Below are positions 21,012 through 30,627 of a DNA stretch of 33,728 bases, in pieces. Every line of letters begins with the position of its first letter. Position 1 is the stretch's first letter. This DNA comes from Candidatus Hermodarchaeum yapensis (lineage in GTDB: Archaea; Asgardarchaeota; Hermodarchaeia; Hermodarchaeales; Hermodarchaeaceae), in contig JAEOSK010000025.1 in NCBI GenBank assembly GCA_016840405.1, positions 1 through 33,728 on the forward strand. The letters are read 5' to 3'. The position numbers and the translations under genes are program-made. A model generated the notes under the pieces. That model had not been told where the DNA came from and did no database searches. It saw only the letters and a list, made by a program, of their open reading frames with translations.

Positions 21012-23114
21012 TTGTCAAGTAAATCAAAGAAGCCCACGAAGAACCGGTTAGCTAAAGAAAAAAGCCCGTACTTACTTCAACATGCCCATAATCCTGTTAA
21101 CTGGTATCCATGGGGGAAAGAAGCATTTAGTAAAGCGAAGAAGGAAGACAAACCCATCTTTCTATCCATTGGCTACAGCACCTGCCACTGGTGCCATGTG
21201 ATGGCACATGAATCATTTGAGAATGAGCGAATTGCCAAACTCATGAATGATGCGTTTGTAAATATTAAGGTGGACCGAGAAGAACGTCCGGACATCGATT
21301 CGTTGTACATGACGGTGACCCAGATGCTGACAGGAAGCGGGGGGTGGCCATTGACAATTATCATGGCGCCAGATAAGCAGCCGTTTTTTGCAGCAACGTA
21401 TATTCCAGCCGAAACCCGGTTTGGTCGGATGGGTATGGATGAACTGATTCCCGAAATTCAACATTTATGGAAGGAGGATAGGAACCGCCTTAACACGATC
21501 ACTAAGAATATTTGGACCAACCTTGAATCATCTTCCCAAGGCTCGAAGGGGGCTGAACTCGGGGAAGGCGTCTTGGAAATGGCGTTTGACTCACTAAAAC
21601 AGCGGTTTGACGAAGAATACGGTGGTTTTGGTTTTCGTCCGAAATTCCCGTCTCCCCACAATCTGATGTTTTTACTTCGATACTGGAAGCGCACGAAGAA
21701 CAAAGAATCTCTTCGGATGGTGGAGTCGACGTTGCAGGCGATGCGGATGGGAGGGATTTTCGATCAGGTGGGGTTAGGATTTCATCGGTATTCCACGGAT
21801 CCAAAGTGGTTGCTTCCACATTTTGAGAAGATGCTTTATGATCAGGCTATGCTGATCATGGCATATGCTGAAGCATACCAGGCGACCAAGAAGGACGAGT
21901 ATGCTCAAACAGTGCGAGAAATCATCACTTATGTATTAAGGGATATGACGAGTCCTGAGGGGGGTTTCTATTCAGCGGAAGATGCGGATAGTGAAGGTGA
22001 AGAAGGGAAGTTCTATGTTTGGACTGAGGAGGAAATCCAGAAGATTTTGTCAAAGAAGGAAGCGGAGGTGTTTCTGAAGGTCTATAATTTTGAACCCGAT
22101 GGGAATTTCCTAGAGGAAGCTACTGGGAAACGGATGGGTACAAACATACCCCATCTTAAGAAGACTCTAGCGACTGAGGCAAAGGCTCGAAAGACAACTG
22201 AGAAAGTCTTATTGAAATTGCTGGAGGGAGCTCGGGAGAAGCTATTTGATGTTCGAAGACAGCGTATTCATCCCCATAAGGACGATAAGATTCTTGCTGA
22301 CTGGAATGGTCTGATGATTGCAGCTCTCGCCAAAGCCGCACGAGCACTTAATCAACCGTCTTACACAGATGCAGCGAAACGGGCTGCAACCTTTGTGCTG
22401 ACCCAAATGCAAGATGGAAAAGGCCGGTTACTCCACCGCTATCGAGATGGAGAAGCAGGCATTCTTGCCTTCTTAGACGATTACGCCTTCCTGATCTGGG
22501 GATTACTAGAACTCTACGAAACTACACTAGAACCTGAGCACTTGCAGAAGACCGTTGAGTTGAACGCGGAGCTTTTAACTCATTTCTGGGATGAAGCGGG
22601 TGGCGGATTCTTCTTCACAGCAGATGATGCCGAAGACCTATTGGTTCGCAAAAAAGACGCCTATGATGGAGCGATTCCATCAGGAAACTCAGTTGCCATG
22701 CTCAATCTCCTCCGATTAGCCCGCATCACCGCCGAATCAGATCTTGAATCAAAGGCAGCACAAATCGGACAAGCCTTCTCAGGTGATGTGCTCAGTGCTC
22801 CACCTGGATTTACCCTGATGATTAGTAGCGTAGATTTCGCAGTGGGACCTAGCTTTGAAATTGTGATTGTTGGTGATTCGGCAGCCCCAGATACACAGAA
22901 TATGATAAGAACTATCAACGATCAGTTCATTCCCAACAAGGTTACGCTCCTCATTCCAACTGATAAAAAAGCCGAGACAGTAATTCAACTGGCACCCTTT
23001 ACAAAAGATTACAAAACCTTTGACGGGAAGGCAACAGTATTTGTCTGTGCAAATCATGTGTGTCAAAGCCCCACCACAGACGTGAAAACAATGCTCAAAC
23101 ACTTGGACTCATAG
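21012..23114 (+). CDS. yyaL: Thioredoxin-domain protein, YyaL/SPATA20 (DUF255) family
   Basis: [72 protein letters not shown]...WNGL. Confidence 0.95.
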
Positions 23115-23858
23115 CGATTTCCGGGCACGAATACAGATAAATGAGGGCCTTCGACGGACCTTATCCCAATCCTCCGGGTTCGCGCGTTTGAAGTCTTCCG
23201 TGGGTTGGGCTTCAATGAGTTTGTCTAAGTGAAATCCAGCTGAATGTAAGCATTCGAAAAAGGTGCTTAATGGTCGACGATAGGATGTGACTCTGACAGG
23301 TTTTCCAAATCCCCTCCATAAGAAGTCGACAATTTCAAGATTGAAGTAGTTTTCTGGGCGCCTTTTTTGCCTAGGATCGTCTCTAACTTCCCATTTGGTA
23401 GATGGATGTTCGTTTGAGAAGATGAAGTATCCATCATCCCGTAGTATACGGGAGAATTCTGAGAAAAGGGAATTCCAATTTTTGATGTAATCCAAGACTA
23501 GCGAGGACAACACAATATCTACTGAATTATCAGCCATGAAATCCAACGGTTCTTCAAGATTTGCACGCCGTATAGTGGCTCGATCTCCTAGACGCTGTTT
23601 GGCAAAGTGAATCATTTTGGGGCTGATGTCGATTGCGGTGACTGTTGCCCCTCGGTCGAGAAGGATTTCGGCATAAAGGCCCGGTCCGCAGCCGGCATCG
23701 AGCACATGTTTGCCTTTAACATCTGGTAGAAGCGATAGTGTGGCTGGTCGTTCAAGATAAGCATTATAACTCTTGGTTTCGATCCGAGCATCAAATTCTT
23801 CAGCCATAGCCTCATAAGCCTCTAAGGCAATTGGTTTTTCTTTCTCTCGCTCACTCAA
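23109..23858 (-). CDS. Class I SAM-dependent methyltransferase
   Basis: [36 protein letters not shown]; start placed at TTG 23858 (uncertain). Confidence 0.88.
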
Positions 23859-24009
23859 CGGAAGCACCCCTGGCGTCAGGAAAGCTAGGAAACTCAAGAA
23901 CATTTCGGTGACAAAGATTGCATGGAGAAATACAAACTGTAGGTAAATCCAATTTCTTATAATCAGCGAGAACCCGATAATATCATTCAATTTGATGTTG
24001 ATGATAGCA

Positions 24010-24355
24010 ATGGATGATGATATGAACGAATATTTCAAGACTGCAGGTGAGACCCTCCGAGCCTTGGGACAATTCAATTCAAAATCCATGAAAAGATTAA
24101 GAATTCATGCAAGCCGTTAAGGCGGATGGTGCGTTATCGAAGAAAATCAAGGAAATAATTGGTATAGGCATCTCAGTCTATATTCAATGCCAATTTTGCA
24201 CTGCATGGCATGTGAAACGTGCTATGGAAGCGGGTGCAACCCGTGAAGAAATACTAGAGGCATGTCAGGTTGCCGCAATGGTTGGTGGCGGACACTCGCT
24301 GATGTCTACCCACTATGCATTCAAAGCCATTGACGATTTCAAAAAAATAGAATGA
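24010..24355 (+). pseudogene. AhpD/carboxymuconolactone decarboxylase family gene split by a frameshift near 24088-24106
   Basis: MDDDMNEYFKTAGETLRALGQFNSKSMKRL in one frame joins EFMQAVKADGALSKKIKE...CQFC..WH...GATREEI in the +1 frame. Confidence 0.7.
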
Positions 24356-24833: not shown

Positions 24834-25244
24834 TCATTCAACCATTAGACTCGTTATTTTGAGTTGATGAATACCCCTCAAACTCTGAAGCTTGGAAGCT
24901 AAAACCTTGATCTCTTTAGCAGGTCCATTCACTACCACAACAAGGAGACAATGGTGGTCAAGGTGAATATGAGTCGTCGATGAGATGGTTTTAGGAAACT
25001 GATGTTGAATAGCCGTTAGCTCAGTCTCAAGACCCGGAACTTCATGGGAATAAATGAACGTAATTGTCCCCGCTAAGCGGGTTAATGGATCATATTCCCA
25101 TTGGTATTCTGTAATGAAATCCCGCATAGCCTGTTGAATCGCCTTTGACCGATCATATCCAATATTTGAAGTGACCTGATCGAAGTTCTCTAAAAGAGTG
25201 GGGGGGAGGGAGATGCTGATGCGAGCTACACCGGGTTTCACCAT
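24834..25244 (-). CDS. nikR: Nickel-responsive regulator NikR (RHH plus metal-binding domain)
   Basis: RISISLP..LL..FD...GY.RSKAI..A.RD; Y.H; QH...HIHLDHHC retains the His/His/His/Cys ligand set. Confidence 0.9.
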   Translation of the reverse strand: MVKPGVARISISLPPTLLENFDQVTSNIGYDRSKAIQQAMRDFITEYQWEYDPLTRLAGTITFIYSHEVPGLETELTAIQHQFPKTISSTTHIHLDHHCLLVVVVNGPAKEIKVLASKLQSLRGIHQLKITSLMVE

Positions 25245-25299
25245 GAATCATCACACCCATTCAAAAGTCTCTCATATAGTGTAAAAGTTTTTATCCTAT

Positions 25300-25331
25300 T
25301 AGTATTACTTTTTTGTTAGAGAGTAATACTA
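25300..25331. promoter_or_regulatory. NikR-type operator
   Basis: Perfect TAGTATTACT-N12-AGTAATACTA; core GTATTA-N16-TAATAC matches the spacing of E. coli NikR GTATGA-N16-TCATAC; adjacent to nikR. Confidence 0.8.
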
Positions 25332-26623
25332 TGTTGAATCGGATTGCTAATGATCGACTTGCGAAGAGCTTTGCCAAAATTAAATTCAAATACCAGACAG
25401 TGGACTGGGACGCGATTCCAACAAAGCATATTGGGATCTACATTCACGTTCCCTTCTGTGAGCAGTTATGTGCTTTCTGTCCTTTTCATAAAGTAGTGTA
25501 TAAAGAAGAATTGAAGCGACTCTACCTAAAAGCCATTGAAAAGGAAATTAAAGAGCGAACAATGGAAGGAAAGGTCGAATGGGTGTATATTGGCGGTGGG
25601 ACACCAAATCTCCTTACACCTTCTGAGATTGGACGAATACTTGAAGCTCTTCGAGAATACGTAGATTTAACAAATATAGGGATGGAAGGGAACCCCTTAC
25701 AATTTACTCCAGAGTATCTCCATCAGATTCGAGAACTGGGAGTTGAGAAACTTAGTACTGGAGTGGAATCCCTCAAGCCAGATACATTATCCCATGTGAA
25801 TCGGGCTAAGGCAGATGAAGCACAAATTACATCTATCGTCGAACTTGCTCGAAAGCTTGGATTCTCAGTGAATGTTGATTTAATGGTCGGGTTACCAAAG
25901 CAGGCGCCTGAGGATTTTTTGTATGATGTGGATAGGGTCGGCGATATCAACCCTCAACAAATTACAACATATCCGTTTATGGATATCCCAGGCGTTCAGG
26001 TCGCTCCAGAAATGAATTCAAAAGAAATGTTTCACCTAATTGAGCAAGCCCATGACACGCTCGGAGACCACGGATATAACCGAGAGAGCATCTGGGTATT
26101 TTCCAAAACAAAAAAGATTTACGATTCAGCTCGTGATGAACTGGTGATTGACTATTTGGGGTTTGGTGCTGCAGCTTTTAGCAAAGTAGCAGGACAACAG
26201 ATTGTGAATCCCCCGCTCCCATTATATTTAGACATGCTTCAAAATGGAAGAACAAGGGCTTTTCAAACTACCGTTGATGAAAAATCTGAAAATTGGCGGA
26301 AGTTTGGTCACGAACTTTATAATCTGTGTTTGGATCCTAAGGTCATTCAGGATATGCCACGTAGTATCAAATTTATTTTGTCTTTATTGAAGCTGACTGG
26401 AAATGTGAAAGGGGATCAGGTGACACAGAAAGGGCGATTTTTCGTGCATGATTTGACAAAAACCATTGTGGAAAGTCTTCCCTTTCCTGTGAGTAATCCG
26501 GCTGCTATCATCAACTTCGAAGAGTATCAGAAGGAACTTCAGGCAGCACAGGAATTATTACGAATCAGAGAAAAAACAGAACAACCTATTGGTGAGCCGC
26601 CGGTAAAGCCAATCAAACATTAG
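25331..26623 (+). CDS. HemN-like (class C) radical SAM protein
   Basis: YIHVPFCEQLCAFC (CxxxCxxC), YIGGGTP, EGNP, LS.GVES, NVDLMVGLP.Q, DYLGFGAAAFS. Confidence 0.9.
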   Translation: MLNRIANDRLAKSFAKIKFKYQTVDWDAIPTKHIGIYIHVPFCEQLCAFCPFHKVVYKEELKRLYLKAIEKEIKERTMEGKVEWVYIGGGTPNLLTPSEIGRILEALREYVDLTNIGMEGNPLQFTPEYLHQIRELGVEKLSTGVESLKPDTLSHVNRAKADEAQITSIVELARKLGFSVNVDLMVGLPKQAPEDFLYDVDRVGDINPQQITTYPFMDIPGVQVAPEMNSKEMFHLIEQAHDTLGDHGYNRESIWVFSKTKKIYDSARDELVIDYLGFGAAAFSKVAGQQIVNPPLPLYLDMLQNGRTRAFQTTVDEKSENWRKFGHELYNLCLDPKVIQDMPRSIKFILSLLKLTGNVKGDQVTQKGRFFVHDLTKTIVESLPFPVSNPAAIINFEEYQKELQAAQELLRIREKTEQPIGEPPVKPIKH

Positions 26624-27996: not shown

Positions 27997-29751
27997 GTGC
28001 AACAAGATGAGATATCTCTGTTAGTTGGTGGTGAAGCCGGTCAAGGTATCAATGCCGCTGGTTTCCTGTTAGCCAAATCCTTCTTTCGGGGAGGTTTACA
28101 CGTATTTGGTTCCATTGATTATCCTTCCCTAATTCGAGGGGGACATAATTTCTACACCCTACGAGCAGCAGGCTATCCGGTATACAGTCACTGGGATACC
28201 ATCAATCTCGTCATTGCTTTAGATGCATTGACGATGAAACGCCACCACAAACACGTTTCCAAGGATGGCGGTTACATCTATGATAGTGATCGCATTCCCG
28301 CGGACCACCATGACATCCCCACTGATAAGAAATTCCTATGTCCCATCCCATTGAAAACTCTACAGAAGGAAATTGGAGGTACTCCTGTCATTCGGAACGT
28401 GATTGCTCTGGGTGCCACCTTAGCTGTTCTGGACTATGATGTCACAATCCTTGAGGTGATACTTCGGGAGAACTTCCAACGCAAGGGCGATAAAGTCGTC
28501 GAGATGAATCATCGGGCAGTTCGTGCTGGATATGATTATGCAAAGAAGAACTTCTCGAACGAGTTCACATATCAGATCAAAGCCATCTCCAAGACGAAGC
28601 AGAACCGGATACTAATCCCTGGGAGTGAAGCGATAGCAGTGGGAGCAATGGCGGCAGGGTGTAAATTCTATTCAGCCTACCCCATGACTCCCTCCTCTGG
28701 TGTCCTCCATTTCTTTTTCGCCCAAGGCGAACAGTTTGGCATAGTGACGCACCAGCCCGAAAGTGAAATCGCGGCCATTAATATGGTCATTGGAGCTGCC
28801 CATGCAGGGACAAGGGCAATGACGGGAACTTCGGGTGGAGGTTTCTGCTTGATGACGGAAGCCTTCAGCATGGCGGGCATGACGGAAACCCCGCTGGTAG
28901 TGATGCTTGGTCAACGAACAGGACCTAGTACTGGGTTACCGACTTACACTGGACAAAGCGATTTGCTCTTCGCAATCCATGCTTCGCACGGTGAGTTTCC
29001 ACGAATCTTGCTGGCCCCTGGTGACGTTCAGGAGTCCTTTGATCTCACTATTGATGCTTTCAACCTGGCTGAGCAATTCCAACTCCCTGTAATCATACTC
29101 ACTGACAAACACCTACTCGAAAGCCACTATACCAATGACACTTTCAAACTCGATAACGTACCAATTGACCGGGGCAAACTACTCCCCATGACACCCTATA
29201 AGGGTGAGAAACCATATCTTCGTCATCGTTACACCGATGATGGTATCTCCCCCCGGTTAATCCCAGGAACCCCCAATGCATTAGTCCATACAGATTCGGC
29301 GGTCCACAAAGAAAGTGGGTTTCAAGGAGACCACTGCGAAATCGCTGAAAGGCAAGCGAATAAACGCTATCAGAAAATGCCTACATTAATGAAAACCCTC
29401 TCAAAACGCGATACCGTGAAGATACATGGACCACATGACGCGAAAACGAGCATTGTTAGTTGGGGGTCACCTAAAGGGGCAATTCTTGAAGCCTTGAGAA
29501 TTTTGCATAAAGAACACCAGAGCATTAACTTTACACAAATTCTCTATATTGAACCATTTCCGGTTAGTGAAGTTGAAAAGGCGTTCCAAGGCAAGCGCCT
29601 AATTCTTGTGGAAAATAACCAGACAGGTCAACTCGGGAGCCTCATTCAGCAATACACGGATTACAAAATCAATTACCGCATCCTCCGATATGATGGACGA
29701 CCCTTTGATCCTGGTGACCTGACAGACCGTATTCGGGAGGCCCTTAAATAA
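27997..29751 (+). CDS. korA: 2-oxoacid:ferredoxin oxidoreductase alpha subunit (gamma-alpha fusion)
   Basis: GGEAGQG, SLIRGGHN, YPMTPSS, ESEIAA, TSGGGF.LM.E, QRTGPSTGLPT, ENN..GQL. Confidence 0.93.
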   Translation: MQQDEISLLVGGEAGQGINAAGFLLAKSFFRGGLHVFGSIDYPSLIRGGHNFYTLRAAGYPVYSHWDTINLVIALDALTMKRHHKHVSKDGGYIYDSDRIPADHHDIPTDKKFLCPIPLKTLQKEIGGTPVIRNVIALGATLAVLDYDVTILEVILRENFQRKGDKVVEMNHRAVRAGYDYAKKNFSNEFTYQIKAISKTKQNRILIPGSEAIAVGAMAAGCKFYSAYPMTPSSGVLHFFFAQGEQFGIVTHQPESEIAAINMVIGAAHAGTRAMTGTSGGGFCLMTEAFSMAGMTETPLVVMLGQRTGPSTGLPTYTGQSDLLFAIHASHGEFPRILLAPGDVQESFDLTIDAFNLAEQFQLPVIILTDKHLLESHYTNDTFKLDNVPIDRGKLLPMTPYKGEKPYLRHRYTDDGISPRLIPGTPNALVHTDSAVHKESGFQGDHCEIAERQANKRYQKMPTLMKTLSKRDTVKIHGPHDAKTSIVSWGSPKGAILEALRILHKEHQSINFTQILYIEPFPVSEVEKAFQGKRLILVENNQTGQLGSLIQQYTDYKINYRILRYDGRPFDPGDLTDRIREALK

Positions 29752-29763
29752 GGAGTGAAGGAA

Positions 29764-30627
29764 ATGCAAAAACCAACAGTTGAAAATTTGGATACCCTTG
29801 AACCAAATACCTGGTGTAAAGGCTGTGGAAATTTTGGGTTGTTACGTGCATTAAAGGCAACCCTCGCTGAGTTGGAAGTTCCTAAGGAACAATACTTCCT
29901 TGTGACAGGAATCGGTTGTCATGGCAAACTCTACAACTATGTTGACGTGAATGGATTCCACGGCATCCATGGACGTACACTTCCCTTGGCAACTGGTGTA
30001 AAACTCACAAACCATGAACTGACAGTAATCTGCGCCGCCGGTGACGGCGACCAATACGATGAAGGACTCGGGCATTTACCCCATGCGGCAAGGCGTAATA
30101 TTGACATCAAACTCTTCACTCATGACAACAAAGTGTATGGTCTAACGACTGGACAGACAGCACCAACCGCCATCCAAGGATACCGAAGCAAAACAACACT
30201 GCATGGAGCCCCCTCACCTCGCCTAGAACCCCTCAAAATCGCTTTAGCAAGTAATGCCAGTTTTGTCGCCCGTGGATGGGTTGGTGACCTTGAACATTTG
30301 AAAGGACTCATGAAAGCCGCCATTCAACATCGGGGCTTCGCATTGCTAGATATTTTTCAAGTTTGTTTTACCTTCAACCGAGAACAAACCTTCCAATTTT
30401 ACCGTGACCGTGTATACAAACTCGAAGACGAAGGTCACGATTCCTCAGATCTCCATCAAGCATGGACTCGTGCCCAAGAATGGGGAGACCGAATACCCAT
30501 TGGACTCTTCTACCAAGAAAACCGCCCAATTTACCGCGACTCTCTGCCCCAACTCAAGAAAGAAGCACTCATCAAGCAACCACTTGCTCCCAAGGGTCTT
30601 GAAAAACTCTTGAAGGAATTCATGTAG
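29764..30627 (+). CDS. korB: 2-oxoacid:ferredoxin oxidoreductase beta subunit
   Basis: WCKGCGN, GIGCH, HGR, GDGD TPP motif, DN.VYGLT.GQ.APT, Q.C.TFN. Confidence 0.93.
   Translation: MQKPTVENLDTLEPNTWCKGCGNFGLLRALKATLAELEVPKEQYFLVTGIGCHGKLYNYVDVNGFHGIHGRTLPLATGVKLTNHELTVICAAGDGDQYDEGLGHLPHAARRNIDIKLFTHDNKVYGLTTGQTAPTAIQGYRSKTTLHGAPSPRLEPLKIALASNASFVARGWVGDLEHLKGLMKAAIQHRGFALLDIFQVCFTFNREQTFQFYRDRVYKLEDEGHDSSDLHQAWTRAQEWGDRIPIGLFYQENRPIYRDSLPQLKKEALIKQPLAPKGLEKLLKEFM

Follow-up and report, generated by a model that had tools for sequence, protein, structure and literature searches.

Layout of the nikR-radical SAM locus

The stretch of DNA analysed here, called the window below, comprises positions 1 to 33,728 of contig JAEOSK010000025.1 (contig C5) of Candidatus Hermodarchaeum yapensis, an Asgard archaeon represented by a 2.7-Mb metagenome-assembled genome (MAG; assembly GCA_016840405.1, G000 in our numbering) that is 86% complete and has a G+C content of 44.7%. 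The nearest relatives at the protein level carry the labels Promethearchaeota, Hodarchaeota or Hermodarchaeia, in keeping with an Asgard host. In this window, nikR, encoding a regulator with a ribbon-helix-helix (RHH) domain and a NikR_C domain, stands divergent from a gene for a HemN-like class C radical S-adenosylmethionine (SAM) enzyme, with an intergenic region of 86 nt (Table 1). The initial annotation, made from the sequence and its open reading frames (ORFs), had described both this divergent pair and a perfect palindrome ending on the A of the ATG of the radical SAM gene, and our analysis confirmed the two. The ORF listing lets the radical SAM gene begin at a TTG (25313), but the ATG at 25331 is the start of the database protein and of every homologue.

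The arms of the palindrome, TAGTATTACT (25300-25309) and AGTAATACTA (25322-25331), lie 12 nt apart. Its core GTATTA-N16-TAATAC (25302-25329) is better written GTATTAC-N14-GTAATAC, with one T between it and the ATG. None of 100 dinucleotide shuffles of the window contained the box with one mismatch allowed, and a genome-wide operator scan, as proposed earlier, found the exact GTATTA-N16-TAATAC a single time in the 2.7-Mb genome. The loose pattern GTRNYAC-N13/14-GTRNYAC occurred four times (about 2e-4 expected per 150 nt). Eight further sites with one mismatch were considered as regulon members and rejected, being inside ORFs or beside genes without a nickel link (for example a GNAT gene and an unassigned ORF of 142-160 aa).

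Table 1 Features of the locus, with box-preceded genes of other Asgard genomes in the last row. Coordinates are those of the window unless a locus is named.
Feature	Position	Strand	Remark
nikR, RHH + NikR_C regulator	24834..25244	minus	136 aa
TATA-like box TTTTTATC	25288..25295	plus	Putative box of the radical SAM promoter; may also serve divergent nikR
Palindrome 10-12-10, proposed NikR operator	25300..25331	.	Perfect; arms 100% complementary
Left half-site GTATTAC	25302..25308	plus	Published GTGTTAC with G3 changed to A; invariant in 7 same-genus loci
T-run, 5' part of spacer	25309..25314	plus	Same spacer side in nearly all boxes before the enzyme family
Purine run AGAGAG, 3' part of spacer	25318..25323	plus	Shine-Dalgarno-like; purine-rich at -14 to -9 in 14/14 loci; putative role
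Right half-site GTAATAC	25323..25329	plus	GTATTAC in orthologues L009 and L010, so position 4 is A or T
HemN-like class C radical SAM gene	25331..26623	plus	430 aa; Pfam Radical_SAM
CxxxCxxC (C43, C47, C50)	25457..25480	plus	[4Fe-4S] cluster motif; invariant in 38 family rows; aligns with HemN C62/C66/C69
GGGTPN (G88-N93)	25592..25609	plus	Class C signature at SAM sites; invariant; aligns with HemN G111-T114
Loci of five box-preceded gene types	L164:1-1497 (G028:C60), L153:1544-2605 (G029:C9), L154:421-1482 (G026:C1), L170:1541-2524 (G105:C180), L163:607-1491 (G006:C2)		Asgard genomes without the HemN-like gene

The palindrome had been taken for a NikR operator and related to the GTATGA-N16-TCATAC class. 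Its identity as a NikR-type box was upheld by comparison with published sites; the class was not. Rodionov et al. (2004) described the NikR box of delta-proteobacteria as GTGTTAC-N13/14-GTAACAC and listed GTaTTAC as a variant half-site (PMC545781), and the window site equals this box with one symmetric G-to-A change (Table 4 of PMC545781). Judged by its letters, the candidate operator fits the delta-proteobacterial GTGTTAC class better than the E. coli class. The 7-nt inverted half-sites, the spacer of 13/14 nt and the promoter-proximal position are common to the delta-proteobacterial regulons and the window; the HemN-like radical SAM target, the Asgard archaeal promoter and the single site in the genome set the window apart. 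A non-transporter NikR target repressed at high nickel has a precedent in the predicted Fe-only hydrogenase genes hydAB (PMC545781).

The TATA-like tract TTTTTATC was found where it had been placed before, 4 nt upstream of the palindrome. When we aligned the promoters of 14 Asgard and Bathyarchaeia-type loci whose box directly adjoins the start codon, a common module emerged: an A/T-rich TATA-like octamer at -43 to -36, the left half-site at -29 to -23, the T-run at -22 to -17, the purine run at -14 to -9 and the right half-site at -8 to -2, followed by the start codon. In archaea, the distance from the TATA centre to the transcription start is usually about 26 nt; because of this distance, transcription should start at about 25315-25319 in the window, with a leader of about 12-16 nt. 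A leader of this length with a Shine-Dalgarno-like run would therefore mean that the transcript is not leaderless, and the earlier call of a probably leaderless transcript is doubtful, as TATA spacing and purine run both predict a short leader. The T-run would possibly serve as an A/T-rich proximal promoter element just upstream of the predicted start. With this start, the half-sites would bracket it, and several archaeal repressors block RNA polymerase recruitment from such a position. The arrangement, with the putative operator between the TATA-like box and the start codon, agrees with the repressor geometry proposed by the initial annotation.

The palindrome could also act at the level of RNA: a hairpin formed in the 5' leader would cover the ribosome-binding region together with the start codon and so control translation. 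Folded as RNA, positions 25296-25345 give a hairpin of 14 bp that extends to the AUG (-13.9 kcal/mol, z = -4.1), with G-U pairs joining the T-run to the purine run. However, no more than 4-8 nt separate the TATA-like box from the left arm downstream; the predicted transcription start then falls inside the spacer, and the left arm would remain untranscribed. The half-sites have kept their sequence instead of changing in a compensatory way, direct-repeat versions occur in five loci (L009, L010, L029, L019 and L124), and the same box stands before unrelated genes at other distances; the match to the known NikR box and the co-localisation with nikR also speak for a protein-binding site. We consider the RNA mechanism extremely unlikely, because the left arm is probably untranscribed and direct-repeat versions of the site exist.

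Conservation of the box and of its link to nikR

We searched 201 Asgard genomes with the radical SAM protein, and 19 of them had a match at E <= 1e-60. Orthologues in the same genus shared 73-78% identity, and nikR was divergent from the gene in all six same-genus loci with enough flank. The element AGTATTAC-TTTTT..-AGTA[A/T]TAC, ending 1 nt before the start codon, was kept in 7/7 same-genus loci (window included), while the remaining intergenic sequence was poorly conserved. Beyond the genus, nikR adjoined the family gene in three other Asgard genera (L019, L020, L022) as an upstream co-directional, downstream co-directional or divergent neighbour.

The box was also found where nikR is not adjacent (L012/13, L025, L026, L029, L032, L033, L121, L126, L129, L152), including homologues of 38-53% identity. 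It reads GTGTTAC-N13-GTAACAC in L012/L013 and GTAATAC-N14-GTATTAC in the Bathyarchaeia-type contigs L026, L032, L121 and L126, which belong to a sample of metagenome contigs encoding family homologues, and variant boxes occur in L029, L025, L033 and L152. On an apparently bacterial contig with YbeY and 7TMR-HD neighbours, a nikR-radical SAM operon follows GTGTTAC-N13-GTGTTAC; in a second apparently bacterial lineage, 12 nt separate GTAGCAC-N14-GTAACAC from the radical SAM gene downstream, and the box of another metagenomic nikR-radical SAM pair contains one mismatch. The loci with a box examined include G011:C25:47825-47852 and G118:C53:31207-31234. The linkage and operator conservation that the initial annotation had suggested checking across genomes were thus recovered within the genus, in three Asgard genera outside it, and in loci of the Bathyarchaeia type or of apparently bacterial origin.

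The position of the box was specific. A degenerate form was found 20 times in 35 family loci (211 kb), one per locus: 19 directly upstream of the radical SAM gene, the remaining one upstream of nikR in a nikR-radical SAM operon, and none elsewhere. In 14 loci the box ended 1-2 nt before the start codon. An Asgard paralogue clade, which includes a second copy in the window genome (47% identity), was without the box and served as an internal negative control. This paralogous copy (G000:C42:105401-106567; L120:4369-5586) follows a rubrerythrin-like gene, with the large-subunit gene of a [NiFe]-hydrogenase about 4 kb away; the rubrerythrin-like gene is itself divergent from another radical SAM gene that is unrelated. 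In L020 and L021, half-sites GTATTAC and GTGTTAC were found about 100 nt upstream of the radical SAM gene and 24 nt apart, against 13-14 nt in the usual box. This spacing, about three helical turns centre to centre, is possibly that of a variant operator (nikR is downstream in L020).

A profile search of the genome contigs with the family alignment returned at least six true family loci among the matches listed, the others being generic HemW-like proteins. Among 251 genomes of its class, the Bathyarchaeia genome G201 was the only one with the enzyme family.

A separate family of HemN-like radical SAM enzymes

In the enzyme, Pfam detected Radical_SAM alone, and the protein fell below every NCBIfam equivalog cut-off, with sub-threshold matches to PRK08629, HemW, STM4012, ChuW/HutW and HemN. 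HemW (TIGR00539) was the second-best match with 140.8 bits against a cut-off of 205.4; ChuW/HutW (TIGR04107), whose model aligned to residues 32-381 and so to nearly the whole protein, reached 138.3 bits against 400, and HemN (TIGR00538) 133.7 bits against 324.95. A sequence search of the PDB matched only HemN (core residues 29-225) and NocN. Scored against the E. coli O157 proteins, the enzyme reached 119 bits with HemN, 87 with HemW and 69 (68.8) with ChuW.

In a maximum-likelihood tree of 61 rows, all 38 family rows fell on one side of a long branch (length 0.87; Shimodaira-Hasegawa-like approximate likelihood-ratio support 100), and E. coli HemN, HemW and ChuW lay on the other together with HemW-like proteins that carry HNxxYW. 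NikR boxes were present in both subclades of the family. The HNxxYW motif was absent from 38/38 family rows, as the initial annotation had noted for the window enzyme, and present in E. coli HemW and in 11 of 21 HemW-like bacterial proteins. RNFQGY was likewise absent from the family, the region being gapped or replaced in the alignment. The tree and the sub-cut-off scores bear out the earlier placement of the enzyme apart from HemN, HemW and ChuW. Like the sequence anatomy of the locus and the conservation and specificity of the box, this separation of the family is a direct observation. A closest relationship to ChuW was considered and rejected on the pairwise scores and the tree.

The residues of a class C active site were retained. 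Besides the cluster motif and the glycine-rich signature (Table 1), Y37, H39, G88-T91, E119, R158 and D183 were invariant or nearly so in the 38 rows, corresponding to HemN Y56, H58, GGGT, E145, R184 and D209. E146 (25766-25768) was Glu in 38/38 family rows where HemN, HemW and ChuW have a SAM-contacting Gln (HemN Gln172), and this Glu is a possible signature residue of the family. No extra conserved cluster of Cys or His was found in the family alignment. The AlphaFold2 model of the enzyme had a predicted local distance difference test score of 89.4; its top Foldseek match was HemN (1olt; E 2.5e-26, template modelling (TM) score 0.72 over 424 columns), with the next matches at TM <= 0.41. The model predicts the full HemN architecture, a radical SAM barrel with a C-terminal domain. 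A search of the ESM Atlas returned generic radical SAM/HemW-like clusters only. The residues and the place in the tree make it most likely that the protein is active and represents a new class C subfamily.

E. coli HemN (oxygen-independent coproporphyrinogen III dehydrogenase) resembles the enzyme in full-length fold and in these motifs, although identity is 26%, the N-terminal segment differs, the family has Glu at the Gln172 position and lacks RNFQGY, and no ALAD gene was found in the window genome. HemW, a heme chaperone, is similar in size and radical SAM core, but the score is below its cut-off, HNxxYW is absent from the family rows and the clades are separate. ChuW/HutW, the Fur-controlled class C radical SAM methyltransferase that opens heme anaerobically, offers an analogy in regulation, as both would be enzymes induced by scarcity of a metal that they could help to obtain; the enzyme, however, scores lower against E. 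coli ChuW than against HemN or HemW and lies outside the ChuW group in the tree.

An ordinary HemN- or HemW-type enzyme or heme chaperone, sharing no more than promoter space with nikR, might still account for the locus: public annotations of the homologues read 'coproporphyrinogen III oxidase-like', HemN is the best solved-structure match, and HemW-like proteins are common in anaerobes. This explanation appears highly unlikely. The enzyme scores below the cut-offs of HemN, HemW, HemZ and ChuW, lacks both HNxxYW and RNFQGY, and forms a separate clade on a long stem; and the box accompanies the family through distant lineages, also where no nikR is adjacent, which chance adjacency cannot explain. 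Genes for ALAD, CobN, CbiM or Peripla_BP_2 proteins were not found in the 86%-complete window genome. An ordinary heme-biosynthetic role is unlikely because no ALAD, CobN or Peripla_BP_2 gene was found, and the genome therefore has no visible route to import or make a tetrapyrrole. The Pfam lists of the loci examined contained no heme-uptake gene, ChuX/ChuY-like partner or tetrapyrrole importer nearby.

NikR, nickel and the proposed switch

The window NikR matched Pfam NikR_C (E 3e-25) and passed two NCBIfam cut-offs (NF002169, 130.6 bits against 111; NF003381, 110.6 against 105). Its nearest solved structure was NikR of Pyrococcus horikoshii (PhNikR; PDB 2bj1, E 3e-30; aligned PhNikR residues 4-128). 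The His, His-x-His and Cys high-affinity ligands all aligned with PhNikR and were conserved in the orthologues. The intact His3/Cys site of the initial annotation was therefore confirmed, though the loop from HxH to Cys is one residue shorter than in PhNikR. Both proteins also share the R-x-S-x-S strand of the RHH domain. This DNA-reading strand, ARISIS in the window NikR, has its Arg in every radical-SAM-linked NikR. The genome encodes two further NikR paralogues, in both of which Ile replaces this Arg, and the window NikR scores best of the three.

The second paralogue (G000:C39:82198-82605; L117:4399-4806) is divergent from a gene for a 659-aa P-type ATPase; TTAATA/TATTAA repeats abound in the intergenic region there and hint at a separate metal circuit. 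The third, with RHH and NikR_C domains (G000:C40:6700-7245; L116:4201-4746), lies between a gene for a ZnuA-like binding protein and genes for an ABC ATPase and ABC-3 permease, and upstream of it is a different perfect palindrome, TTATTAAC-N13-GTTAATAA. On our reading, every NikR paralogue has its own operator and local target.

Evidence linking the box to nickel came from other genomes. The Bathyarchaeia genome G201 contains three AT-spacer palindromes of the box type: one before the radical SAM gene, one 13 nt before cbiM/nikM, and one abutting a gene for an FmdE-domain/zinc-finger protein that is followed by a Peripla_BP_2 gene (L139:245-965, L149:1-328). A phylum-wide scan found clean T-run boxes 4-19 nt before five gene types in Asgard genomes without the HemN-like gene (Table 1), namely a CobN/BchH-like chelatase subunit, an HmdB/BioB-like radical SAM protein (beside the lipoyl synthase LipS1), a Peripla_BP_2 protein, a ZnuA-like protein and a class I methyltransferase. 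These genes point to an unexplored Asgard NikR regulon. The box thus stands before nickel-uptake-type genes in G201 and in other Asgard genomes; in the 86%-complete window genome, neither a CbiM gene nor a second perfect site was found. It is a nickel-demanding genome, with at least five [NiFe]-hydrogenase large-subunit loci, CdhC and HypA. Taken together, these sequence data support a NikR regulon of the metal-uptake type, with nickel most likely as the effector. A homologue in an Anaerolineae MAG (L127) is divergent from hypB (cobW domain)-hypF-hypC; three direct repeats GATTTACTTTG/GATACTTTG occupy its intergenic region (L127:4854-5000) in place of the NikR box. On a Bathyarchaeota contig (L029:4536-8383), the box-preceded family gene has a Nitro_FeMo-Co (NifX/NafY-like) gene on one side and, on the other, a gene for a DtxR-type regulator, then feoA and one more gene, a setting that amounts to an island of general metal homeostasis.

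We estimate a probability of about 75% that the locus works as a nickel switch dedicated to an orphan radical SAM enzyme of class C. In the proposed mechanism, Ni(II)-loaded NikR from the adjacent gene would bind GTATTAC-N14-GTAATAC as a tetramer. The operator would occupy the space from the TATA-like box to the start codon, over the predicted transcription start, and because it covers this start, binding should block RNA polymerase recruitment; on the nikR side, TFB may be hindered as well. Under nickel scarcity, NikR would release the site and the enzyme would be made, in some organisms alongside nickel-uptake genes, and would most likely perform a SAM-dependent radical reaction that helps the cell to obtain, mobilise or do without nickel. 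A NikR-controlled HemN-like radical SAM gene, derepressed at nickel scarcity, is the most likely reading and is strongly supported by comparative evidence across domains. Of the earlier proposal of an enzyme induced by nickel starvation under NikR, the regulatory part gained support from the conservation of linkage and operator, while none of the suggested roles (opening of F430 or Ni-porphyrins, synthesis of a metallophore, replacement of a nickel-dependent step) was backed by direct evidence.

Several points weigh against the nickel switch. The window NikR has HxH-x4-C instead of HxH-x5-C, a one-residue deletion without counterpart in the genus orthologues or PhNikR (24930-24960, NikR residues ~95-104: THIHLD-HHC against THIHLDxHHC in all genus orthologues), which may be real variation, an assembly error or a change in metal affinity. 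With paralogues beside a P-type ATPase and a ZnuABC-type transporter, the NikR-family proteins of this genome need not all be nickel sensors. In the window genome the box stands on no nickel transporter and is the sole perfect site. No box was found at family members from Thermoplasmata (L031) and from Spirochaetia and Clostridiales (L034-36), or at L127, L130 and L150. Across the 201 Asgard genomes, GTRTTAC-N13/14-GTAAYAC was no commoner than a reversed control, and the significance of the box therefore rests on position and context only. As nikR is the sole conserved partner gene of the enzyme, the chemistry is unconstrained. We infer the binding by NikR, its metal specificity with nickel as the effector, the repressing sign of the regulation, the transcription start and the physiological role.

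The regulator might instead sense another metal or a small ligand, with the radical SAM enzyme as part of that response. The different candidate operators beside the transporter-linked paralogues and the shortened ligand loop would fit such a sensor; furthermore, the CbiM-type and ZnuA-type transporters preceded by the box elsewhere are not strictly nickel-specific, and one Bathyarchaeota homologue adjoins a DtxR-type regulator and feoAB. Nevertheless, the window NikR is the best-scoring of the three, is above the NCBIfam subfamily cut-off and has all four high-affinity ligands, the loop is of canonical length in the genus orthologues, and the operator matches a box class defined on nickel transporters. 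A non-nickel sensor is therefore unlikely, and we retain the nickel switch as the preferred reading.

Under a nickel switch, two roles of the enzyme may be proposed. As the catalytic core of nickel scavenging from organic nickel complexes, a nickel counterpart of ChuW, it could at nickel starvation open or modify a Ni-tetrapyrrole (F430 from neighbouring methanogens or anaerobic methanotrophic archaea, sedimentary Ni-porphyrins) or another Ni-chelate and release the metal. A hint in this direction is that NikR boxes in related sediment archaea precede Peripla_BP_2 chelate-type proteins and a CobN/BchH-like chelatase subunit; against it, the window genome is without a visible tetrapyrrole importer, and we regard this role as improbable. 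The enzyme could also provide a low-nickel accessory step in the maturation of [NiFe] centres, a suggestion based on the hypB-hypF-hypC neighbourhood in Anaerolineae.

NikR regulons have been described as nickel importers and a few nickel enzymes (PMC545781, PMC2667541). In the literature searched, we found nothing relevant on a HemN-like or radical SAM gene as a NikR target or on a HemN-like gene with nickel, and the arrangement appears to be unreported there. The NikR-type operator accompanies this radical SAM family in Asgard archaea, in archaea of the Bathyarchaeia type and in some lineages that appear to be bacterial, and frequently the genome has no other clear site. Such an association would tie an orphan class C family to nickel scarcity as a defined physiological cue and would point to a nickel-economy step outside current schemes. 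The carriers are anaerobes that rely heavily on [NiFe]-hydrogenases and carbon monoxide dehydrogenase/acetyl-CoA synthase, where nickel is locked in sulfides or organic complexes. The putative promoter-operator module of TATA-like box, half-site, start, half-site and ATG may also offer a compact system for studying repression in Asgard archaea.

In accordance with the initial annotation, which had reported no adjacent nickel transporter, Pfam scans found neither a nickel transporter nor a nickel enzyme in about 20 kb of neighbouring sequence. The DUF302, CMD, hydrolase and zinc-ribbon neighbours were rejected as functional partners, as their synteny is confined to the genus, and a tie between the methyltransferase at 23109-24089 and the box-preceded methyltransferase of another Asgard genome was rejected as generic fold similarity only. 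The genes at 21012-23114 and 27997-30627 are ordinary and without a nickel link; the neighbours include a 700-aa DUF255 thioredoxin-domain/GlcNAc-2-epimerase-like protein and a two-subunit 2-oxoacid:ferredoxin oxidoreductase.

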